The notes below the pieces were generated by a model. The model searched no databases and was not told where the DNA came from. It saw nothing but the letters and a program-made list of their open reading frames with translations. DNA of 64,000 nt from Amoeboaphelidium protococcarum X5 (taxonomy: Eukaryota; Fungi; Aphelidiomycota), in assembly GCA_023515725.1 (NCBI GenBank), contig JALDTO010000266.1, forward strand, positions 2,436,217 through 2,500,216, written 5' to 3'. Shown piece by piece: positions 3,101 through 64,000 of the stretch (positions within the stretch are counted from its first letter, which is position 1; every line of letters begins with the position of its first letter). Both the position numbers and the translations under genes were made by a program.

Positions 3101-4504
3101 CTTGATTTGTCACTTTCCAGAGCTAGACAGTTGTAAACTCTTGGGACTTTTATGTCTTCGATGGTAGATCCTTTGGTATTTAACTCCGATTAGATGTTCC
3201 TTAATCAACTCTTGATTATCTCACGTAGACTTGCATCCATGTTGGGTGTATAAGTAGATTTCAGGTGTGGTATTCCTCGATCACCGACCGCTGGTATGAT
3301 TTAGCTCTTTGATGTTCTGATGGCTAGAATTCTTTCTGCTTAACTAGTGTAAGGTGATTTGATTTAGTTAAGGACTGTTCTATATGCCATGGTACAAAAA
3401 GTCGTCCAAGCATCTAAAGACTCATCTTCTGAATACATGCAATACGCCAGTTCTATTGTTCAGGTTATTGTACAAAGAGTGCTTCTTTCTCCTCTATCGT
3501 ATCAAAATGTCTTGATTAGTGCGATAAGCTAGTACATTAGTCATTGTGAGAATGCCTAATTGCGCGAGTCGTTACTTTTAGGATCTTTGTCTTCTCTGGA
3601 ATCTCAAGATCTTGTTAGAGATTCTGCAGCTTAAAGCAAAGCGCTGGAGATACTCTAAAGCGCTTATGGAAGTTTGGATCTCAATTCTCAAAGTGGCATT
3701 CAATAATCGTGTCAAAGTATCGCTAGCATTTGCAAAATCCTTAATCGATCCTAAAATATGAAACTGTAGTCTCTATTCAATGATATATTTCTCCCAAGTC
3801 TAGTAGATGAGAGCGCTCGTCCTATATTTAATGGTCTTGCTCCTGGGATATTCTTTGTATCAGAAGTTATTAGCAATATGCGATTGTCGTGTCTTAAACA
3901 AAGTTTGAAGTCCATTATGAACTGTCTTGAGCTATGGGCTCTGGGTAGAACAACAATATTGGAAAAGATTCAATTGGCGAAACTATCCACTCATATGCTC
4001 TATTAGACTTGCTCAGAATATGGTCACGATAGAAAACTCCTATAGTTCATAGCTGCCTTGTTGTTTGAAAGCTTAAAGTAAACTTTATCTCATTGCTTCC
4101 TTCTAGACTCGCAGACCGATGATGAGTAGGCTATGTTACAGCAAAGGTGGAGCGACGTACAAAGCTTGGTTATTGGCTATGATGATGAGTATCGACAAGA
4201 CTATCATTTATATCTTGAACAGCTATTCCGCATTGGCGATAAACCAATGTCTGTACTTACACGTTTTGAAAGCCTGCAGATATCTGGAGTTGTTTACATT
4301 AGTCACGCAATGACACTGCTTGTTACTCTTCACAGCTGTGATCTAGCTGTGGATGAAGTTGAGAACTTGACTCAAGCATTAATTCGATCTCCTGCGGTGA
4401 TTCAATCTAAAGATGCCAAGTTGTAGCGGCTTCTCATAGAACACTTGCTACTTCCATTGAACATGATGAATGAAATCAACCATCTCTACAATAAACTCTC
4501 ATGA
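170..4504 (+). CDS. Large (~1444 aa) protein of unknown function with an acidic/low-complexity N-terminus and a predicted helical C-terminal two-thirds
   Basis: ATG at 170 and TGA at 4502-4504 share a frame with track ORFs 2189..2473 and 4133..4426, consistent with one ORF when TAA/TAG=Gln. Not every codon was checked and no family motif was recognised. Confidence 0.65.
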
Positions 4505-4768
4505 TGCAAAGCTAAAACTTGTTAATAGTCCTTTTATGTTCAATATAGCAAGCAATCTATCTGATTGACCGTTCTTTATACAGTAGGTAGTCTTCTTTTC
4601 GTTAACTGATCTAATGTACTGTTGATCTTCTCATCGGAGCGCGTTGGTTTCTTCTCTTTCTGACTTTCTGTCTTAAAGTCGCAATATACTGAAAGAGTGA
4701 GCAGCTGTATCTTCTACTATACTATTGGGAATATAGATTTTACAACAGTCAAGTCTAAATATCGAGAG

Positions 4769-5516
4769 ATGCCTTCTAGTAAAAATTTGCCGTATGCAGC
4801 TGAAGTTAATGCTGAATTGTCCCCATAAGAGATTGAGGTACGATGTTTATATTGATCAATTATCTCAACATGTGGTATCATCTCTTCTGAACTATGTGTA
4901 GGTGTTGGAAGATGCTTATAAGAGAGCTGCTGTCACTACCAGAGGCCAAATACCGTCTTAAATCAAGTAGGATTCGGAGGATACTCTTGATAATAAGTAA
5001 TTAAAACTTTACTGCATTATTTTGTAGATTCAATTATGCTTGGGGTCTCGTCAGAAGTAGATTTCGCGATGATCAGCTGAAAGGAGTATCAATCTTACAA
5101 GGTGAGTATTGCGTACTAATCTTGTTTTCTGGATTTTTAATTGCACTTAGTAAGCATACAAGTGTATGTATGTGTATGGGTGTAGAGCTATATGATGAAG
5201 ATGTCGAGAGAAGACGCGAGTGCACGTATTATCTGGCTCTTGGTTACTTCAAGTTGGGTAAGTATGCTGAGAGCCGCCGGTTTAATGCCATGCTGCTGAG
5301 AGATGAACCCAATAATGCACAAGCCCAGTCTTTATAAAAAGTTATTGACGACAAAGTGGCGTCTGGTAAGTTGGAATCTACATTCTTATTGCCTCATTCT
5401 AAATCTTGCCTGTTATTACTATTATGTGTGTAGAAAGCTTCATCGGAATGGCTGTCGTTGGTGGAGTTGTAGCCCTTAGCGGACTTGTACTTGGTGCTAT
5501 TCTGAAGCGAAAATGA
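4769..5516 (+). CDS. FIS1: Mitochondrial fission protein Fis1 (5 exons)
   Basis: Spliced product contains KFNYAWGLVRS, RRRECTYYLALGYFKLGKYAESRRF, EPNNAQAQSL and a C-terminal TM GMAVVGGVVALSGLVLGAILKRK-TGA. Four GT..TGTAG introns. Confidence 0.93.
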
Positions 5517-5752
5517 TTGAATGCTCTTATTTGTTGACATTGTTAGTGACATTGCAATTGGAATATATGTTAAGCTGTATTTTTATACTTATTGCTTAGC
5601 TATTTCGGTTTCAACGTGATCATTCCACATTGTATGATAAGTGAAGTTCTTTTACAGACTCGCGATGACTGCAGCCCATAGTCTTTCTAAATCTACAACA
5701 TTACCAGGGTGCATTTAAACAAAACATAAACGACAATAACAATAACAATATA

Positions 5753-8353
5753 TCAATCTATTAATTTAGATTTACTGTGATTGAGGACAAGAAGGTCGGA
5801 ACGTCGACGCGGTTTACTTGCACTAGTTAGAGCACCGAGTTTACTAATCATTACGAAAATGATCATCATAACTTACATCACATCACCGATTCTAAATGGT
5901 TCATCATCACACTTAATAACGAGGTATATGGCCATAGACGAGACCAAAACTAAAGCAACTATTTTGGAGCGTATAGTTCTGCAAGAGTATATGGATTACT
6001 GTTAGTTTATGGTAAAGTTGAACGCCAACAGCAGAGCAGTAGATGCAAAATCTTGAGGTTCGAGCATTTTAAAATCATTAGGAAGATTACGGACATAAAC
6101 AGCAATTTTCACTAGATGAAGAGGCAAGACACTGAGATACAATTACAATACCATATAGTGCCATTAGTATTCAGCTACACCATCCTAATGAAACAATTCA
6201 GAGCACTTCCAAATTTATTAAACTGTAACCATAAGAAATGTCAAATCATACGGACCGATGAATGACGCAGTAACACCAGCTATTGTCCAATACTTATTAC
6301 TAGTGATTGTCTTGTATCTACTAAAAAACTTTACTACAATTCTATATATAAAGTTGAACAACAGAATTACAGTGTCGAATAATAGACATCGAATCATAAC
6401 CAGACCAATACTGGTAAGCATATACACTGATACTATTATCCAATGAGAATTCACAAACAGGGTACCGAGAATAAGAATTGGGATTAGGTACATAACCACA
6501 ATAGAACTGATCCGAAGCAGCGACTATTAATATGTAGTAAAGTGGGGATATAGTGAGCAGAGCAGAATACACAGCACAGTGATTATGAAGGGATAAACTA
6601 GAGCAAATTACTTTCGATGTCTAACTATAGATTTTACAGTATACCAAGCACTAGGCTGAATATAGAGATATCCTGAACAATTACTTAATATGGATATGTA
6701 ATATTCTGCAGAGAAAGAGTCAATAAGAATTAGATTATCCAATCCAGCCCATTGTATCAATTATTAAGAATGACTTTCAGGATTCTTTTCAACACGAACA
6801 TAAACATAATCAGACGCTGTACATTCATTTGATATAAATCTAGCAGTAAAAGTCAGAGGGGATTCGGAATTCCGCCTGAATACAAACTTTTAGACAAAAT
6901 TCACTTATGTAGACACTGGCCATAAACTAGGAGTAATTACGACTTTATCCAACTGTTTAAATGCAGTTTCATTCCATAAGAGAATACGTTGCTAGTCTTC
7001 CATCTTCTCAATATACACAGTACTATTTCCAGGTATGACCATGCTATAATAATCATTTTATGCCTAGGGATTAAAAAAATGATAAACCAGCCGATTTCCA
7101 TCATAGAACTACTATGAGATAAACTAATCATTGACACCGTCGCAAATAACTACTTTAAACCTTGAGTCGGAGATTAATGCAAAAGCTACACCGTCCATAC
7201 TCTGAAATTTAGTCCTTTTATCAGAAAGGGGCATCATCATTGATATTCCAATATTTTACTAATTATATTGACCAGACTCATGAAATTTATCTTCAAGTCT
7301 GGGAAGATCCTGTATCGAGTCAAACTATTTAAACAAAACTTGATTGTAATAGCGATTCTTCTGACTAGCATCAAGAATTACAGTATTCATAATGATATCA
7401 GACAAGAGAACGACCAACTGATTACACCAAAGAATTGATTAATGATCAGTCTAAGTAGATACAGAGTCTAACATCTCAGTTTCCACATGCAAATAATGCT
7501 ATTCAAATTCTTCTGAGTCACTGTACTGATATGCAGATTGAGAGGAGACCATTTTATCCATATCACCACCAGAAATTGAAAGGATCGATATATTATTCAC
7601 CAACAAGGGCAATGAGTGACCACTTTAGGATACATGCCCATTCACCTTCCAATACAACTACAGGAGTCGCCTATCTAAAGGAGCTGGAGGTATGAAATGA
7701 GGAGTGCTCAAAGTGATAAGTGAATCCGCGCAAGTGAGATTGATATCTCCGTAAAGTGTAAACATTGTCCTGGCCACGAATCCAGCCATTGAATGAGAGA
7801 ATACTAAGACTTTAGAGAAGTGTAGATCCTAACACAAATGCTATAGGACTTGGTGAGCATACTGTGCCTGCCGTTCAACTACGCCGCCATCAAGACCACT
7901 CAGCTCCTCTTTAAAATCTACCGCATAAAAATCAATTCGAGGACGTTATGAGAAACCATCGACAATACCATTACTGCGATCATTAACAACATCCCCATGT
8001 TGCAATCGATTCAAAACTGTAGACGCGACAGATCTGACCTGCTTAAAACTTCCACCACTGCCAGGCAAGAATAAGACTGCATATTAGTGTTTGTCAGCAA
8101 CATCATCATCATCAATTGACCCCTCATAATACTTATAAAGACCATACTTGTAATGCAGCGTCTATTCATCTTGAATGAGTTGATACACTGGCCGCATATA
8201 AGTCATCTAACACCGACTAGGATAATCATTATGAAGATACATGGTTAGAGATATGTATAAAAAAGCAATAGTCAACACACTACCAACTATTACGGCAAGA
8301 TATCCCCTTTTTTAACCAGCTCCACCATTATTATTCATAGTACTATAAGACAT
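5753..8353 (-). CDS. PGAP1: GPI inositol-deacylase (PGAP1/Bst1 family), ~866 aa
   Basis: N-terminal TM, CQMTYMRP, VLFLPGSGGSFKQVRSVA, DFYAVDFKEEL, nucleophile elbow SHSMAG and a multi-TM C-terminus. One frame ending in TGA. Confidence 0.88.
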
Positions 8354-8683
8354 GAGAACGCACCTAGGACAATAGTTGCGAGTTGATCTTGACACTCACA
8401 ATGACTTTTTCGATAAGAAAGAAACATAAAACAGTCGGAAAGAATTGAGATCAATAGATGAAGAGTGGAGCGCTGAAACAAAACGTTCCATTATGGCCCC
8501 GTTTGTATAAAACAGGAGAGAGATGAACAGATTGATGGATAGATGCTATGGCGTATGGCTTACACTAAATCTTACTGGCAGCAACAGGTAGCAAAGATTA
8601 CCTCAAAACTTTGAAAAGAGAATACGTGAAAAAGACTTGACAGAAACACCAAGTAAAAGGGCAAGACAATGGATATGTTTATT

Positions 8684-10384
8684 TCATAATTGGATTTTAT
8701 GAACTGCCAGCTCAGACAACTTCTAACCGTGAAAGGCAACACCAACTAGAAAGCATTCACAATCGTGCAAATCGGCTACCACATAGTATTAATGATCAAT
8801 GATTTGTTTCAAGACCGTTTTAGCATCCTCCTGAAGGTCACTTTCACGCTGCGAAAGCTTGAAATTAAATACGAACACCCTATTCAAATGATTAAATCGA
8901 ATTCTGATATCATGCCTGCCAAGACCAGATTCAGGATTGGATGTCACTATGATGTTCATTCCATCATGCAACATGGAAAAAAAAGCCCCAAGGAAGAACA
9001 AGTGGCCCAGATAATCATTCATTTTCATTAGGTCGTGATCTTGTGAAGAACAAAACTTTATCATATCCTGCATCACATTTTGCAGAGCCGATATATTCGG
9101 AATCGCAGCAGTCAATGCCTTCTCAATACGAGACCTGAATTGAGGTGCGAATTGATCACGCAAGAGACCCATTATATTCGACTCCCAATAAACACGAATC
9201 TCCTTGTTAGGAATCCAAACTACACCAGATGTGATAAAAGTATTTTAATCATCACCATGATTATGGCGATAAGTCAGGTAGCCAGTGTGGACGAGAAAAT
9301 GAATGATCCTATCGATACTCCAATCCTCGCTTGAGTAATCGACCCCAGAGCTGAGTTAAGACACTTCCACCTGCTTCTGATCGTATAGCAATGCAAAGAT
9401 CTCCATTAAAGATTTCTTCAAGTGCGGTTTGAGAATGGTGGCAATAGTTTCAGTATATGACGATCCAACCTAGTAGGAACCGAAAACATCACGGCTATAC
9501 CAGCACATAAACGACCAAGGGTTGATCAGCATATCATTCCCAATACAGTATCCACTGTACCATTCTTTGACATTCTTCTTTGTGGATTCTTCAGGAATTA
9601 ATGAACCAATTTCATCCATTGAGAATCCAAAAAAGGCTGAATATCTCCTATCAGCGACCGAGTAAACTTGAACGTTATTAAGGCCAGATAGAATACCAGC
9701 GCCCCGAACTTCTACAATGCCCACTAAGCAGGCTTTCTTCAAAGCATCATTACTTTTAAGCGCAGACGAGTACAACAGGCCAAAGAAGCCTGAGGCCTCC
9801 TTATAGAAACCTTGACGAAATGCATGATTTAAAGGCGCGTCATATTCATCCACCAATACAACAACACGTTTGCCGTACTTTGTATGCAATTCAGTTGTCA
9901 GCCACTTGAGGCTCGATGCAACTCGGATTACGCTAACTGGAGGAGTCATTCTTGTAAAGTCCATATCTCTTGAGAGTAGTGTAATTTCTTCAGCCAATTC
10001 GTGTCGATGACGCAAAACCATTTCGCGAATACACTGCCATACAGATTCATACATTTGTGCCCACGATTCGCCTTTACAGTCTTTGAGATCCAGCACAACC
10101 ACAGGATATTTACCGCAGTGCTTTTCTACAATATAAATCTCCTTTCCAATGAGGTAGCGGTCAAAGTGCCTAGGCTGGGCATTCAATGACAGAAATGATT
10201 TGAGCATTGACAGATTAGTGCTTTTACCAAACCTACGCGGACGGAGAATAGCAACGACCTCGGAGCCATCATTCATGAATTCCTTTATAAAGAGACTCTT
10301 ATCAATGAATAGAGCATCAATTTCGATAATCTCATCAAAGTTGGACGCGCCTATTAGAAGTGGGTGTGTACGGCTTGGCTGCAT
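8684..10384 (-). CDS. AAA-ATPase-like plus PD-(D/E)XK nuclease-like protein of bacterial type, ~566 aa, intronless
   Basis: FIDKS, RPRRFGKSTNLSML (Walker A), VLVDEYDAP (Walker B), SGLNN, INPWS, LVHTGYLT, IPNKEI, SNPESGLGRHDI, FNFK, VGVAFHG. Track ORFs 9470..10384 and 8789..9172 join in one frame via TAR codons. Confidence 0.88.
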
Positions 10385-32153: not shown

Positions 32154-33371
32154 TCAGATATCACTTTTAATCACACTCGAGCGCTAAATACCAGTTTCAG
32201 TCTCTTTTGAGTGAAGTTGAGATTAAGTCTTGGCACGATATAAAGCCAGCGAAATCAGATCATTTGCAAACTGAGGTACGCTCTCCTTGGACATTCTCAA
32301 AATTTCCCCTACAGTACTGGTGAACTCATTAACATTGAAAGACACGCCACAATTAGCATTGACTTCAAGGACATATGCATCTTGTTCGGCTTCCAGAGAA
32401 CTAGTTCTGATGTCAACTCTGGCGTAACCACTTCCACCTAACGCCTTATATGAATCGATAGTCAGCTGTTTGAGATACTGCTGCACACTGGACTGTGCTA
32501 GTGCATACCAGTAAACAGATTGTGGATTAGCCGGAACATTACCCTCAAGATCATATCCGTCCCAATATCTGTCAAATGCTAGAATGCGCTGATATCGACC
32601 AAGTTTTGGATCAAATACACGCTCAGCGACATCAAATACCTTGTATCCACTTTCATTATCACCAATAATTAACGACGTGTACTCTTTACCATCAAGGAAC
32701 CGTTCGATAAACACCAGACCGGAATCTGACAATGAATCTTCAGTAAGACACTACTTCCGCACAGCCTGTGCCTACTTTAAAGCATCTCGCGCATTATGAA
32801 CGACACTGTGATCCGTGATGGAAAGGCTCGCGTATGAAACGGATGGTTTCACAATCAGCGGATATTTTGATTCAAACGCAGTCTCTATATCCTGCTCAGT
32901 CGTGCTATCTGTGACTTCCAAATACACAGATGTAGGCACGTTGTGCTTCATAAGCTCAGCTTTCAATTTTGGTTTTGATGTAGTGATGTCATAAAACTGA
33001 GGAGACGAACCAGTGTACGGAATCTGCAGTTTATCCATCAGCTTGACCAATCCAATCCCGGGATAACCGTCTGTTTCACATCCATCGCAGAGATTAAAGA
33101 TTACAACGTCAGATAAACTATTTAGAAATTTCTGATGAATAGAACTAATTACACTCTCATAATTATCTAGACTCACTCCGCATATCTCCACATGATCATA
33201 ACCAAGGCTTTGTAGAACTGATTTCAGGTCCTGACAATTGTTTTGCTTTCCAAACTCATTACTCAATTTCACTAGAGAATGGACATCACTCGAAGATCCA
33301 CTCAGTTGTGGTTCCAAAATATAGACATGCTTGCAAAGAGGAGTGAGCGAACTAGATTAAAACACATTCAT
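32154..33371 (-). CDS. D-alanine-D-alanine-ligase-like ATP-grasp enzyme, ~405 aa, intronless
   Basis: VIFNLCDGCETDGYPG, IPYTGS, YPLIVKP, FIERFLDGKEYT, GYARVDIR, YVLEVNANCG. Two track ORFs joined by TAG. Confidence 0.85.
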
Positions 33372-47797: not shown

Positions 47798-48480
47798 ATG
47801 ACGACCACTAAGGATATTATTAAATCTGCAAAGAAATCTTTGAGGAAACTCTACTCAGATAAGTTGCAATAGATTTCATAGTCAAGTATATAGAGACAAA
47901 GTAAGTTTACTTCAGTAAAGCGTCTTTGATCATTGTCTTTTATATTGTTGTAGGCAACGCGGTCTGTCAACACCTTATAACCCTGAAATCTTATTAGAAT
48001 GCTAGAAATGTCAGTGTGTATCTTTCAATGCCAGGGGAAATCGATACCAATCTTATTATTCGACACTTGTTCAATGATGGAAAGAGTGTGTTTGTTCCCT
48101 CTTGGAATAAAGATGAAATGATCATGGTCAGAATGCAGTCGTATGATGAAATCCTGACTTTGCCACGCAACAAGTGGAACATCCCAGAGCCAAAGATTTC
48201 TGATAAAAGTGTCATTGCTTACAAGCCGTCGGAAGTTCTTGATTTGATTCTCATGCCAGGTGTGTGTTTCGATCGCACTAGAATGAGACTTGGACATGGA
48301 AAGGGGTACTATGACAAGTTTATTGCCATTGCGTCAAAGTACGCGTTAGATAATGGCGTCTCAAGGCCATAGTTAATAGCTTTATCGTTGAATGAATAGA
48401 TCAGCGATGACAATGTACCTACCGATGCTCATGATTAGCAAGTTGATATGGTCATTTCTGAGTAGGAAATAATATAATGA
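47798..48480 (+). CDS. MTHFS: 5-formyltetrahydrofolate cyclo-ligase (intron 47901-47953)
   Basis: AKKSLRK, YLSMPGEIDT, NKWNIPEP, DLILMPGVCFD, RLGHGKGYYD, PTDAHD. Confidence 0.93.
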
Positions 48481-48562
48481 TTTTTGTCGTTAGTTCAAGA
48501 AGTTTTGTTAACACTTTCTTCTTTGGGCGATAGTAGTATGAAAACTTCTAAATTGGTTTAAA

Positions 48563-49509
48563 ATGGTAAACTAGCTAATATTAAACAACTCTCAATTGCC
48601 ACACTAAATTCTGTAGGGAAACGATTAAAGTTCTATATTACCAGAGAATGAAATCACAGAGACCAACAAGTCACTTCCATCAACACCTGCAGCTCTGAGG
48701 CGGTTGAATCAAGTAAGTTCTTGCCAGCATCAGAGAGAATATCAATTCATATTGTCCGATTGTAAAGGGAATTATTACTGTCAATCGAAGGTCTGAAGAG
48801 AGCGGGATTAATCAAGATTCTGATATTAAGGAACTATAGTCTTTGCCCAAGGTAATATACGTTTTTAATGTTGTATACTTGATCAATGAACTACTGTACA
48901 ATGGTGTAGTTTGCTCCGATTATACCTCAAGCTCTTGCATAAAATTAAAACGCGTTTCCGTCTCAAGTTGTAACTTCTAAGCGTAAGTGTCACATATATA
49001 TTTTTTTAATTAGTGTGTGTCAACTTTTGAATGATGTAGCAATGGGAAAAGATTAGTTACTCCGAATGCATAGCATATTGAGAGCACATACTGATGCTGT
49101 CAATTAACGCGTCACGTAGTCTTAAATTATACTTATGCGAAATATTATGGATTGCGAGAAGGTGTCTATGGATACGTAGAGATACTTGGATGATGTCCAT
49201 AAACTGTTAGACTCTGCGAACTCGGACCTCTACGTCACTATTAGCCTCTAGCGATAAGTGGTGAGTTGCAATCAGTTGGTAAAATCAATATTTGATCAAC
49301 TATCATCTCTGTCCCACACTAGTACTAATGTCAAGTAAATGCTGGACGACAATGAAAAGTTTCCGATTCTTTCATCACTGTACAGGCATAGAGTATCAAA
49401 AGGCGCCTATTAGTAAACTGGTGATGTTAGTTCCATTTAAAGAAGATAGGACACGAGCAAGAGTTCAAGCAGTGTGGCTTTATCTGAAACAAGCATAACG
49501 CGTTCCTGA
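48563..49509 (+). CDS. BORC subunit 5 (myrlysin/LOH12CR1)-like protein (5 exons)
   Basis: ATG|intron|GGA AAC GAT TAA AGT gives the myristoylation-type start MGNDQS. GIITVN...DSDIKELQSLPKFAPII is followed by a coiled coil. Absent from the ORF track. Confidence 0.68.
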
Positions 49510-57577: not shown

Positions 57578-57645
57578 ATATAGCTTGGTAGATGTTTGCT
57601 CAGCCGCTTCCTTCTTATCAATACACTAATATAAGACAATTCTGC

Positions 57646-58662
57646 ATGAAGTCTGTTACGCAGCTATTATTTTGTGTGATTATTTTGGCCAAGTTGTGCG
57701 TTTCTCCACCAACTTTGTACGACGATGGAGATGATCTGAGTTTTAGCAAGGAGGAAGAGTATTTGAAGCTGATAATTGATAATGGCAGTGCTTTCTAGCC
57801 ATTCGATGATAATCGCGAGGCTACTGATGACAATGGCATTCCATATACGTACGCTCGTCGTGCCACTTTAGGTGAAATGCACAGACGCTGTGATCCAGAA
57901 GTGCAACAGTAAGATGTCGTGGTGGATGGGTACGTGTTTGAAGATTTGCTGAATGCCAAAAGATACATTAGAGCAAAAATAGCGTACCTGGCAGATATTA
58001 ACAATTCTGAAAAGTTTTAGATGGTCGTAGAAGAACGCGATTATGTCGACGAATATCTGGATAGTTGTCTGCCTGATGGTGCTTTGTAGGTCGGCGTTGT
58101 CAACGCGGCTACAGGAGATAAGGTCAAATTACCGGGGGTGGAGTTTTCTAGGCGCTGGGTGTCCTGGAAAGCGTCCATTACTGTCGACAAGTAAAAGTAC
58201 ACTATTGGATACTTTGACCACTTAATATATGCTGCCTACGCGTATGATCAAGTCAAGAAGAAGCAAGGCGGCAATCCCAGAACAAGCGGTTTGAAGTTTG
58301 CCAATGTTGTTAAAAAGTCCATAGTGCGAACTGCAATTTAACAATCTCAACGAAACATTGATAATTTGTGGGGGTTTTTAGTTCCTACCGCCGAGATTGC
58401 CGATTTATCAGAGTTGCAAAATGATCAAGATGATTAAGAATTGTCTGAGGAAATTGACGCTCTGGAAGCAGAGCTATAAGCGGAAGGGTCATCATTCGAA
58501 CCGTTCTAGGCAGAGGTGCGACAGGGAAATCAATTGCCACAAGAACAAGAGTTTAATCTACGCTCTTTTGAAGATGCACCTGGTCTCGAAGAACGCGTAT
58601 AGGAGCCCAAAAGAACTTGGTTCAGTTTCATGAATCCCTTCAAGAGAACGCGCACTGGTTGA
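57646..58662 (+). CDS. Predicted secreted acidic orphan protein, ~338 aa
   Basis: Signal-peptide-like MKSVTQLLFCVIILAKLCVS followed by a continuous frame to TGA 58660. Confidence 0.72.
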
Positions 58663-58958: not shown

Positions 58959-60494
58959 TCACATTTTATTGTATAGATCGAAAAGTTCACTTGCTTAAGG
59001 CACCTTTAAAGTTACGGCAATTTAAAGGTGTTTCAGACCATCCTAGACAGTTTATGACGCGGATTTAACCATCAATGCATCTCCATTAGCACCAATCACC
59101 TCCTGATAAAGGTAATGAATAGCAAGGCACATGGAACTATATGCGTACCCATATGATAACTGAAGCTCTTAATCGTCCTAATCTGAAGCCATTTCCCATA
59201 ATCTCAGTGCGCCTCTAACGTCGTGGGCACATCCCATGCCGCGGTATCTCAGCAGGCCAAGCCAATAAGCAGCGGTCGGAGCCTGTGGAGACAGAGACCG
59301 AGTTAATTGTCTGACTGCTCCAGCCCAGTCACTATTTTGCATCGCTTTAAATGCCTTCTCTATAGTTTAAACATTACTCTAAACTACATCAGACGAATGC
59401 ATTGAGGATATTAACTCGGATTGATCAACCTTTTAGTCTTGCAACTCGTTCATTAGCCGAGTCAGTAGAAGATTTAAATGGTCTTTCACTTATCGATCAT
59501 CATCATCATCGTCATGAAGGTTGTGTGCTTAAGATTTTTACTTGACACCTTATAGAGACTCAATCTCTTCTAAATGATCAGAAATGGTCTAATTATACGG
59601 ATCAAGTTCCTTTGCATCGAGAAGGGATTACTTACAGTCTGAATACCGCTTCGTCTACTGATACACTAGAGCCAATCTACAATGAGCTTTCCACCATTCC
59701 GGGCATAATTCTACAGATTGTTAGGCATCAGAGAAGGCATTCTTTAGCAAAGTCTTCCGATTACTACTAGAAGATTCGCGCTTAACAGTATCATCATCAT
59801 GTGCATTGACCAACATGGATAATCGCGCCTGAGATCTATTAGAATACAAAACAGCCAAGTCAAAATCATCAACACCCTTCACCATCAATGCTTCAGTATA
59901 AAACACGATCGCCTTTGAAAAGTCTTTATTGCGGAACGCTTAGTTGCCCAATGCTTTTAACTCAACCAATTTTGCAGGTGGCTGATACAAAGCATCGCGG
60001 CATCTAAGTGCATCTATCTCAAGTTCACCTACCCCCAATTACACTAATGCATATTTAGCTTTACTAAACCATTCAGTAAATTCTTTTCTACTAACAGACA
60101 TTTAATGCAGATGTGCCATATAATTCCGTAAATCTCTAATCACTAGAACGTGCCGTTAATCATTCGCTGATGCATCATCTATCTACGGAGCATTGTCTTT
60201 AGATTGAGTACTGGCACACATTGACAAGATCAATCCACAAATCAGAGTAATGTCCCATTAATCTAAGTTCCCGCTGATAAGTAGATCGCGCTGATCTCTG
60301 TGCAGAGATTTGGTGTAAGATTTAACTTGCGCATCGTCAAACAGACGCCTACATTTGTTGTCATCATCTGGCGACCATTATATACCAAAGTACTCAGCGT
60401 ATCGCTTCTCAAACTACTCTCTCAGCACTGGTAGACTATAATCATGAAGCAGCTTATTCAATAAAATGTAATAGTTGTTATTAGCGGTAGTCAT
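58959..60494 (-). CDS. HEPN (DZIP3-like)-TPR-SEL1 protein, short paralog, ~511 aa
   Basis: WDITLICGL...IRDLRNYMAH (60111-60128), TPR LKALGNQAFRNKDFSKAIVFYTEAL...LYSNRSQARL and SEL1-like YWLGLLRYRGMGCAHD. Confidence 0.82.
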
Positions 60495-60682
60495 TTATAA
60501 AATCAATCAATCAGCTTCAATATCTTGAATAGAAATCAAAGGTAAAGTAGATGCACTCTTCCGTGATGGTGAAAGAAAAGCAAGCTGCCAATGACAGAAG
60601 TAAAATAGCATGGATATATAATTTATTAAATTTCATTTCGATATCCACGCCATTGTCATTAAATTATAAGAGTATCTTAAGG

Positions 60683-63600
60683 TCAGTAGATTCTGCTGTA
60701 GAGAGAGCAAAGTTCATTATGTTTCAACTCTTTCCAGTCCATCAATTGACATTCGCGCGAACAATAGGTGGCCATCTTGCACTTGGAGCACTGCTTTACT
60801 GCTTTCAATTCAATTCCACAACAGCAGCATACTTGCACCTGACCGATAAAATCTATACTACTAGGGTCGTCCACGCGAATTCCAGTCTAACCATCAGCGA
60901 ACATGCGACAAAACGGTTCGTTGATGACAATCTATGCGCCAATCTTGAAGTGATTTCTTAACTAGTCTGGCACGTTATAGCAGGTAATGAGGCATAAATC
61001 CCCATTTTGATCAACAATCATCACAGGAAGTGACGGCGTATGCACATTGTTAACATCCAGGATAGTGGCAGACAGACGACAGCCCTTCATAACCTAATCG
61101 CGGTTAAACGACATCTCTCTCAAGGCGACCTCTTTTAAATTACTCTTACTAATGGTGCGATTCTCATTCTATGGCGCTTTAAAACTAAAATCTGTTTTGT
61201 ACACCTTGCCAGAAATTTTTGCCACCACAGATAGATGATCCCTAAACTTTTTGAAAATTTGTTTGTTTACAATACCAAGAGGTCTTTCAGACGGTTAGGT
61301 GGTAGATGAAGAAGCAGACGTTGTAGATTGGCCAACAGATGAAGATCCATTCTAGCTTTTTACTTATTTTTTCGCTTTATCAGAAGATGAACCGTTTTTC
61401 AAGTCATACATCAAGTCAAGCGTGCTCTTTGCCGTACTCTCATAAGGCAAAAATATTGGCAACAGACGCTTCTCCAGCACTTGTCCTTTCAGATACCACT
61501 TGCGAGCACTCTCACGATCCCCCTCTTTATCCAAATATAGCAAAGCGAGATTGTAACAAACTTCTGGTGATTTACGATGATCATAAGGCGCAAGTTTGAG
61601 AAATAGTTCAGCCTTTTCCACGTAACTGCTCATAGGTATGCCGTCCACCGCGCGCATACACGAGAACTAATCAAAGACACAAGAGAAGCTATCTTCACCG
61701 ACTAGCTCACATGCTTTGTTGGCATCCCTTAGAGCATTCTCATACTTGCCACTCAGAAAGTTGAGAACCGCTCTCTGGCCATACAATTTCCCACCCTCAG
61801 CCGGATACTTGGCAATGTAACGAGTACACATGGACAACGTGCGAGCAACATCAGTAAAGTTGAAGACGACATTACATGCCGCAGCCTTCCCTTGGAATTC
61901 TGAGCTCTTACTCTTTGTAAGCACTTCCAACAATATCTCACTGAATTTCTTCTTCAAATCACCGAAAAATGTGGCCACAATCTCAGTTCTAATGAAGCAC
62001 TAGTACAAGTTCTCCGTAATCTCCTCCTTCTGGCTCATGGATATATCCTTGACATTCTTATACTTGAATACTATAGTAGCAGCATCCCAAAAGAACAAAC
62101 TAGACTCGAGAAGAAATTTACCAAATTCGGACCCTTTCACAGCATACTCATTCAATTTATCTGGATGATACTAGAAATCCGCAACATTGCTCATTTTCTC
62201 AAGACCAGCTCCAGATGAGTTAAGACTGGATTCACGAAGAATTGAAGTCAACTTGTTCAGAGTCTCAATGTCAGTTGAAGTGACTTTCTTCTTCATATCG
62301 CGACATTTATTCATGAAAGACTTCGCCTCTGTGATGGCCGGTACAAACATCAGTGCTACCGCCTTCTTATGGTACATCATCGCGTCATCAAACTTCCCTT
62401 GCTCCAGACTCAAGTGGGCAAGAGCATGAACGGCTTGAGGATAATCAAGTCGAGCCGAAAACTAAAGCAACTGCATGGCTTTATCCTGATCTTTAGGTAC
62501 GCCCTGGCCATTCATGTACATCTAGGCCAGATTAAATCCAGCCGGTGAGTATCCATTATCTACAGCCTTCTGGTAGCACATAATTGCATCTGCCATATCT
62601 TCAGACACTGGCCGAGTGCTTCCGATCCTATGGTCATAATGAACACCAAGTGCAAATTGAGCATCAGCTACTCCATACTTTTTACCAACACGACCATTAG
62701 GATTCTCAGCAGCACACTATTTGAACAATCTCACCGCCTCCCAGATATCATGCTTAGTGCCGCGGCCCCAGTACTTACAGAATGCAACTTTATACGCCGC
62801 CTCTGGACAAAACTTAATCTTCAATGCTTGGCAGTACAGTCTATAAGCCTTGTGGAAATCATTTTCAACTTCGAAAGCCTCATAAGCCTGACTAAGAAGT
62901 TGCTCCCGCTAGCCCTTTCTAAACACTCCCAAATTTGGCACAAATCCAAATCTCTCTTAGAACTCCTCCTAAAATTCTTCCATAGAAACTGCAGTAGCAG
63001 CAGACTCCTCATGGAATCCGTATTACTCTTACTACTTCAAGATTTAGACCACTGCTTTCTCATGCAAAATATCTTTATCCTGTTGTTAATTAATAGCCAG
63101 ACACATGTTGTACGACTCAATAGATGCATCGTACTCTTTCTTCCTCATCTATGCTCTACCAAGCACAAGGAACGCTTATGCGAAGTCAGGATTTAGCTTC
63201 GCAGCACGTTTACCATCCTTGATTGCCTCATTTAACCTGCCGACATCAATATACGCCTGACCGCGTTAAGTCAAAATATATGCCAAATCCTTATCAGTCA
63301 AGTCTCCATTATCGATAATCTGACTAAATACTTTGATTGCATCCTTGAAATCAAACGACTCCATAGCCTCTAAACCAGCTTTAACTTATGCTTAGACTTG
63401 AGCAGAGCACTCGGGAAATAGCGCCTGTGATGATGACTGTCCTTGGATTGATAAATCAATGTCAGCCTACGTCTGACCAAGCTTTAACAAGGCTGAAGTT
63501 AAAGTAGACAGGTGGGCTTTGTAAGAATCATCCTGCACAACAAGGGAACTCATATGAACCAGAGCATTACGAATATCGCGAATAGATTTAACAGCATCCA

Positions 63601-63889
63601 ATTGATCGCCAGTCAACTTTAACTTCCAAGGAAACTGAAGCAGGACTAAGCAGAGAAGAGAGACATCCCAGAGCATAGCATTTCCACTCTCAATCTTGGC
63701 CTTCTAATCTGATCTCAAAGAAGACATGAATGCAGCATTATGAGCATAAGCTTTAACGACTTTCTTCTAGTCCAGAGAGGATTGCCCAAACTACTCCTGA
63801 TGCTTACTTCCAAACAATCTTCTCAGAGCCTAAATACCGTTCTCATTAATCAGTCTAGACAGATTATAGTAGTAACCAACTTGATTCAT
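60683..63889 (-). CDS. HEPN (DZIP3-like)-TPR-SEL1-TPR-zf-MYND protein, ~1068 aa
   Basis: WDVSLLCLVL...IRDIRNALVH (63554-63571), TPRs, several SEL1 repeats (FNLAQMYMNGQGVPKDQDKA) and MYND CCCCGIELKAVKQCSKCKMATYCSRECQLMDWKELKHNELC. Five track ORFs share one frame. Confidence 0.87.
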
Positions 63890-64000
63890 ATTTGATGATG
63901 CCTTTATAATGTGATATTAGTTACTAGGAGTGAATACGTAAGAGTAGTTTAATAAAAAGTTGAAAGTAACTGTACAGGTTTGAAAGAGAAGAAACGCGTA

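Follow-up and report, generated by a model that had tools for sequence, protein, structure and literature searches.

A tandem pair of predicted HEPN ribonuclease genes with TPR and SEL1 repeats in the aphelid Amoeboaphelidium protococcarum

The window analysed here is a stretch of 64,000 nucleotides from Amoeboaphelidium protococcarum X5 (GenBank assembly GCA_023515725.1, contig JALDTO010000266.1, positions 2,436,217 to 2,500,216), and positions 58959 to 63889 of it hold two neighbouring genes, a long and a short one, each predicted to encode a HEPN ribonuclease (RNase) domain followed by TPR and SEL1 repeats (Table 1). The window is eukaryotic and was read with genetic code table 6, in which TAA and TAG specify glutamine. 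Table 11 gave only 5 open reading frames (ORFs) of at least 150 amino acids in the window and left the region of the pair in fragments, whereas table 6 gave long ORFs throughout. The initial annotation described the genes as adjacent, co-oriented and strongly diverged paralogs, which was borne out by two intact minus-strand ORFs, 188 bp apart, whose proteins are 24% identical over 470 aligned amino acids (E 5e-22), with the homology starting at residue 5. A frameshift or pseudogene reading of the pair was considered and ruled out, since the stops of table 11 are glutamine codons used as in the neighbouring genes. A recent horizontal arrival in the aphelid was likewise ruled out, as GC content (0.40-0.42), GC3 and the use of TAA and TAG are like those of the host genes.

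Four sequencing runs of one study, the kind of which is not on record, were treated as RNA-like. These runs behave as spliced RNA, because GT..AG introns of 51-58 nt are skipped in neighbouring genes at 47900-49040. In the same four runs each gene of the pair lies under its own long contig with no splice joint (X5 contigs 60607-63944 for the long gene and 58990-60541 for the short gene), and no contig bridging the two was found among the pieces listed. It supports that the genes are transcribed, intronless and on separate transcripts, so that the apparent lack of introns noted earlier stands. The contig depth in these runs is unfit for ranking expression, and a labelled RNA run, X14, gave five short low-depth pieces only and was not used. 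The convergent plus-strand neighbour at 57592-58662 (356 amino acids, weak AP2 match with E 0.015) was covered by contigs in all four RNA-like runs.

Table 1. Features of the tandem pair in the window (aa, amino acids)
Feature	Position	Strand	Details
Long gene (P0002)	60683..63889	minus	1068 aa (table 6), intronless, transcribed
Long copy, DZIP3-like HEPN	63443..63889	minus	aa 1-149; W74, D75, R107, N108, H112
Long copy, RNALVH (R-x4-H)	63554..63571	minus	motif search
Long copy, co-chaperone-type TPR, five clamp positions changed	63020..63403 (approximate)	minus	V169, L173, Q208, Q238, V242
Long copy, SEL1 repeats	62300..62917 (approximate)	minus	about aa 325-530; Pfam Sel1 E 3.7e-16 and alignment
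Long copy, second helical/TPR region	61400..62299 (approximate)	minus	about aa 531-830; family motif DHRKxPE
Long copy, OB fold, TTC5/Teb1-like	60845..61174	minus	aa 906-1015; Pfam TTC5_OB, model, Foldseek
Long copy, MYND zinc finger	60707..60829	minus	aa 1021-1061; zf-MYND 26.1 bits, cut-off 22.7
Short gene (P0001)	58959..60494	minus	511 aa (table 6), intronless, transcribed; ends past SEL1 region
Short copy, DZIP3-like HEPN	60000..60488	minus	aa 3-165; W80, D81, R123, N124, H128
Short copy, RNYMAH (R-x4-H)	60111..60128	minus	motif search
Short copy, TPR with intact two-carboxylate clamp	59565..59972 (approximate)	minus	K180, N184, N219, K269, R273; alignment to STIP1/HOP
Short copy, degenerate SEL1 region	58995..59372 (approximate)	minus	Sel1 aa 406-441 E 0.025; alignment to long copy

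The initial annotation assigned a DZIP3-like HEPN domain to both N-termini, with a WD(I/V)(T/S)L motif and an R-x4-H motif. WDITL and WDVSL were found, and both R-x4-H motifs lie at the positions it gave. Taken only as a degenerate DNA pattern, the R-x4-H motif could occur by chance (2 occurrences against 0.5 expected; at least 2 in 9 of 100 shuffles), and its weight comes from the domain context, not from the DNA pattern. The short copy passes the Pfam family HEPN_DZIP3 (PF18738) with 39.4 bits at a cut-off of 27 (E 6.5e-10). By language-model features, the HEPN domain of the long copy scored 0.94 in the Atlas, with neighbours carrying PF18738 in 11-38% of their members. When residues 1-180 of the long copy were searched against 1.84 billion representatives, 29 matches were returned, 13 of which matched HEPN_DZIP3 at E <= 1e-4. 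The structure was modelled for the long copy only, and the AlphaFold model, built on an alignment of 18 rows, was all helical with a pLDDT of 88.8. When it was compared with 48,161 solved chains by a wider structural aligner, Csm6 took the first rank (Z 8.7, with 115 residues aligned at rmsd 3.9; chain residues 94-233) and AbiF the second (Z 7.8, with 139 aligned at rmsd 4.2), with Roquin, a further Csm6 and Swt1's C-terminal domain at lower ranks. Taken together, sequence, language-model features and modelled fold agree that the N-terminal domain is a DZIP3-like HEPN domain.

The R-x4-H motif is kept in 24 of the 26 aligned family members, at 20-30% identity, and the two exceptions without the catalytic R are paralogs from Orchesella. 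In alignment A5, all 30 rows have the same R, N and H, and most other columns vary. To avoid ascertainment bias towards HEPN, the OB domain of the long copy was also searched on its own; it gave 13 matches, which were 5 known members, 5 new long members, 2 C-terminal fragments and 1 protein of another architecture. All 5 new long members, which are included in the 24, carry a HEPN domain with R-N-x3-H. An N-terminus that does not model as HEPN and a motif that is not conserved in homologs, the two sequence-level outcomes named at the outset as contrary to the proposal, were both examined and neither occurred.

The first TPR domain after HEPN has a character that the initial annotation had not mentioned, as its best matches are the Hsp70/Hsp90 co-chaperones SPAG1, STIP1, SGTA and CHIP. 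In the short copy the clamp residues align to the clamp of STIP1 TPR1, read with the clamp numbering of HOP TPR1. Clamp TPRs bind the EEVD tail of Hsp70 and Hsp90, and the TPR of the short copy is predicted from its residues to bind this tail. Equivalent clamp residues have been described (PMC2865030). All three short copies from the aphelid score 5/5 for the clamp, and its three long copies score 0/5. Of 20 members from outside the aphelid, 7 score 5/5, another 7 score 3/5 or 4/5, and the other 6 score 1/5 or less; one of these six is truncated.

TPR and SEL1 repeats follow the HEPN domain in both copies, as had been described, and both have Pfam matches, Sel1 weakly in the short one. The additional TPRs and the MYND finger ascribed to the long copy were also found, the finger above the Pfam cut-off. 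Ahead of the finger lies an OB fold, a further feature not noted before, which the short copy lacks. Pfam TTC5_OB matches it with 21.7 bits, below the cut-off of 30 (E 1.6e-4); by this profile the long copy is not in the TTC5 family, and it has no sequence match to TTC5 in the PDB. The model of this domain reached a pLDDT of 80, and Foldseek matched it to Teb1 OB-B (E 1e-5), TTC5 (E 1.9e-5) and then to OB domains of tRNA synthetases and Pot1. Such OB folds are binders of single-stranded nucleic acid.

The pair is not unique. Judged by sequence, it belongs to a patchy eukaryotic family of rotifers, springtails and an amoeba with the architecture HEPN - TPR - SEL1 - TPR - OB - MYND, the members of which are labelled in databases only as 'MYND-type domain-containing protein'. 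Full-length members are found in the bdelloid rotifers Rotaria and Adineta steineri (the latter 27% identical to the long copy over 94% of its length), in Orchesella dallaii (four paralogs, three of them on contigs of one length), in Echinamoeba exundans and in metagenome eukaryotes. Folsomia candida has a member in the same domain order with no MYND match, and Brachionus has an N-terminal piece of a family protein. Several paralogs are present in Orchesella and rotifers. Several relatives (Adineta, Rotaria sordida and the protein P0034) hold the clamp and the OB-MYND tail in one chain. The Atlas contains a cluster of 149 members of the long form and, as a lead only (score 0.86), a cluster of 60 members of a 568-amino-acid HEPN-TPR-SEL1 form, both mostly from rotifers. 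No relatives were found in viral contigs, prokaryote genomes or phages; these scans reach close relatives only, and this absence is weak. With PADLOC profiles, neither of the two proteins nor either isolated HEPN domain matched any family at E <= 0.01. Neither protein has a NACHT or NB-ARC Pfam match, and a profile search from the full-length alignment was overwhelmed by matches to TPR/SEL1 proteins.

Some relatives show other arrangements. A protein of 583 amino acids from a JGI metagenome (P0047) has a MYND-like finger and a C-terminal HEPN domain of the same subfamily (HMM E 1e-23), so that the modules stand in another order; a link between the OB domain and its N-terminus was not significant. 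Another (P0056, 835 amino acids) has two tandem HEPN-TPR-SEL1 units in one chain and may be a fused pseudo-dimer or an assembly artefact. At one relative locus, L002 (identical to L003), a member adjoins ADP-ribosyltransferase (ART)-like genes and an ART-amidase (PGRP-type) fusion. This rotifer-like contig holds, at 4009-9839 and immediately upstream of the member, a run of ART-like ORFs, a CAP-domain ORF and the fusion of ART with amidase_2 (PGRP-type). Of the 15 members listed for the cluster of P0134, many are on contigs 8.57-8.61 kb long, and at the locus L001 the flanking genes are ordinary, with none that is evidently from a mobile element; these members are probably the same organism assembled repeatedly.

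Other A. protococcarum proteins are 95-97% identical to the long copy and 88-94% identical to the short copy. The tandem pair recurs at two loci of the named strain, since the locus tags are consecutive (MP228_002337/002338 and MP228_002943/002944), so that the adjacency of a long and a short gene was seen at three loci overall. The losses in the two copies are complementary: the short copy has HEPN and the clamp without the second TPR region, OB and MYND, and the long copy has HEPN and these three without the clamp. An old duplication in the aphelid probably split the clamp and tail functions between the copies.

In HEPN RNases, two R-x4-H motifs together form a single active site. Recent work also states that they must dimerise to form this composite centre (10.64898/2026.09.30.754977). 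We predict that the proteins are likely regulated RNases. The reading that we put forward, with a probability of roughly one half, is that of a predicted dimeric HEPN RNase which is likely switched by Hsp70/Hsp90 docking together with the repeat scaffold in stress or infection. Docking of the chaperones would hold the protein off while keeping it folded, or would mature it. The HEPN domains would then pair upon a trigger sensed by the SEL1/TPR arrays or upon depletion of the chaperones, and the OB fold may bring RNA to this cytosolic RNase. The outcome would be a shut-off of translation or the destruction of foreign RNA.

A role in defence is suggested by the scattered range of the family, its paralog clusters and the loss of the catalytic R in some paralogs. 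The ART-like and ART-amidase neighbours at L002 point the same way, as does the published expansion of the HEPN_DZIP3 family in oyster immune gene arrays (PMC9646362; PMC3710099).

Several observations weigh against this reading. The HEPN domain of the long copy scores 17-21 bits with HEPN_DZIP3, under the cut-off of 27, and reaches E 3.5e-4 as an isolated domain. Z values of 8.7 and 7.8 are middling for a helical bundle. AlphaFold with Foldseek had been proposed as a check of the N-terminus; the all-helical model agreed with the assignment, and on the other hand Foldseek with the long HEPN model gave nothing at E <= 0.001, a HEPN protein appearing at rank 47 with E 2.9. The searches found only one long and one short type in the aphelid and no expansion was seen. 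In the tree, where both copies sit on long branches, descent of the two from one ancestor is neither supported nor rejected (p-AU 0.47). The window neighbours are mostly housekeeping genes, and the relative locus L001 also lies among ordinary genes, with a single HEPN gene within its 9.3 kb. The clamp is also lost in Orchesella and in P0058, and at the P0058-type locus L002 no second HEPN gene was found within 10 kb on each side, so that the loss of the clamp needs no partner. Variation, counted as protein differences among the aphelid copies, gave no sign of hypervariable sensor repeats either. In the long copy there were 11 differences in 150 HEPN residues against 26 in 680 residues of the repeats, and 8/150 against 10/680 in a second comparison; in the short copy the counts were 19/165 against 11/346, and 18/165 against 43/346 in the second. 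Variation in the HEPN domain is on a par with that of the repeats or exceeds it.

How the two proteins combine is a matter of stoichiometry. We lean slightly towards the paralogs forming separate homodimers with different triggers, their adjacency being a mere trace of tandem duplication, and this is compatible with the RNase part of the proposal above. Both copies have a whole R-x4-H motif and lie under separate transcript contigs, the full-length relatives stand alone in both loci read, and the 568-amino-acid Atlas cluster, as a lead only, suggests a repeated origin of short forms. Separate homodimers explain less well that the losses are exactly complementary and that adjacency outlasted divergence to 24% identity and was seen at three loci. 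A long/short heterodimer would reunite the divided functions and is favoured by these complementary losses and by the lasting adjacency; it is possible, and we hold it tentatively.

The pair could also act in RNA quality control or proteostasis, not in immunity, by a TTC5- or IRE1-like coupling of the state of nascent or unfolded proteins to the decay of particular mRNAs. TTC5 triggers mRNA decay at ribosomes (PMC10403363), and it is among the best matches both of the OB model and of the family features (Atlas 0.80, lead only). The co-chaperone clamp, the low copy number, the host-like GC and codon use and the conserved repeats would also fit such a role, as would the mostly ordinary neighbours and the fact that no expansion was seen. 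Housekeeping genes, however, are not scattered over unrelated eukaryotes as this family is, the paralogs diverge fast and two lack the catalytic R, and the OB match to TTC5 ties with that to Teb1 and is unspecific. We consider a quality-control RNase unlikely, with enough in its favour to keep it in view.

The HEPN domain might not be a nuclease but an RNA- or nucleotide-binding dimerisation module of a co-chaperone scaffold. There is some room for this, as the RNase activity of DZIP3-like HEPN domains is called putative (PMC9646362) and Swt1-like HEPN domains can be inactive (PMC3710099), and two Orchesella paralogs lack the R. We nevertheless regard it as improbable, as R, N and H remain invariant in all rows of A5 amid variable columns, which is the pattern of catalytic residues. 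The aphelid is an intracellular parasite of algae, a point for a toxin secreted into the algal host. HEPN domains are common toxin effectors (PMC3710099), but secretion is very improbable here, since a rough check found no hydrophobic N-terminal leader (mean hydropathy <=0.26 over the first 40 residues) and homologs occur in free-living rotifers, springtails and an amoeba.

The predicted chaperone-switched RNase can be extended to a fuller picture, which we regard as doubtful, less probable than the quality-control role. The family would be a scattered eukaryotic defence RNase guarding Hsp70/Hsp90, in which the hijacking of chaperones by a virus or parasite turns the HEPN domain on, with the OB fold directing it to RNA or ribosomes. 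The aphelid version would work as a two-gene heterodimer, with the short chain as chaperone sensor and the long chain as targeting tail.

The fusion of HEPN_DZIP3 with TPR and the proposed role as a defence RNase are already in print (PMC3710099 Table 1; PMC9646362). The initial annotation took the pair for a candidate undescribed system; this does not hold for that proposal, and it applies at most to the full order of HEPN, clamp TPR, SEL1, TPR, OB and MYND, which targeted literature searches did not find, though the supplementary architecture lists of PMC3710099 may bear on novelty. MYND is not mentioned in the text of that paper. The DZIP3/hRUL138-like HEPN proteins (PF18738) share with our pair the subfamily, R-N-x3-H, the N-terminal effector and a listed TPR fusion, and are proposed antiviral RNases with lineage-specific expansions (PMC3710099; PMC9646362). 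Their published fusions are with RING, ankyrin, CARD, NACHT, DEATH, LRR or TPR, mainly in animals; the present family differs in having no NTPase, in its clamp TPR, SEL1, OB and MYND, and in a range that includes an aphelid and an amoeba.

Csm6 and AbiF (PDB 4rgp, 8vz6), the best structural matches, are R-x4-H RNases acting as dimers, but the aphelid pair has no CARF domain and no CRISPR or non-coding RNA context, is about 11% identical and is eukaryotic. TTC5, the tubulin autoregulation factor, resembles the long copy in a TPR array followed by an OB fold, with matching OB models, and leads from protein recognition to mRNA decay, but it lacks a nuclease, SEL1 and MYND and recruits SCAPER/CCR4-NOT. 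HOP/STIP1, SPAG1, SGTA, CHIP and UNC-45 have the three-TPR domain with the K, N, N, K, R clamp of the short copy and many relatives, although none of them carries an RNase and the long copy lacks the clamp. In IRE1/RNase L (KEN) and Sacsin, a HEPN domain is also tied to a proteostasis or infection sensor (PMC3710099; 10.64898/2026.09.30.754977). In contrast to these, the pair has no kinase, transmembrane helix, ankyrins, Hsp90-like ATPase or J domain, and its HEPN domain is N-terminal and of another subfamily.

Two further minus-strand ORFs were observed elsewhere in the window, each with only 5 TAA/TAG codons. The ORF at 8684-10384 (566 amino acids) has a bacterial-type predicted AAA-ATPase domain (PF09820, E 3e-35), and its C-terminal part resembles by eye a PD-(D/E)xK nuclease tail; it may be a conflict-related or horizontally acquired gene. 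The ORF at 32154-33371 (405 amino acids) has a D-Ala-D-Ala ligase-like ATP-grasp domain (E 2e-12), which is unusual in a eukaryote.

Invertebrate immune gene arrays are rich in DZIP3-like HEPN domains, the RNase activity of which is still called putative in the papers cited here. The members of this family are compact and intronless test cases for a specific idea of control that can be checked, since an EEVD clamp adjoins the nuclease and an OB fold lies at the opposite end. The aphelid pair amounts to a natural dissection of the protein, as the control parts are divided, with a different half retained in either copy. If the proposed reading is true, chaperone load would be linked directly to the destruction of RNA in the cytosol, and an aphelid, rotifers, springtails and an amoeba would have a module of innate defence in common.

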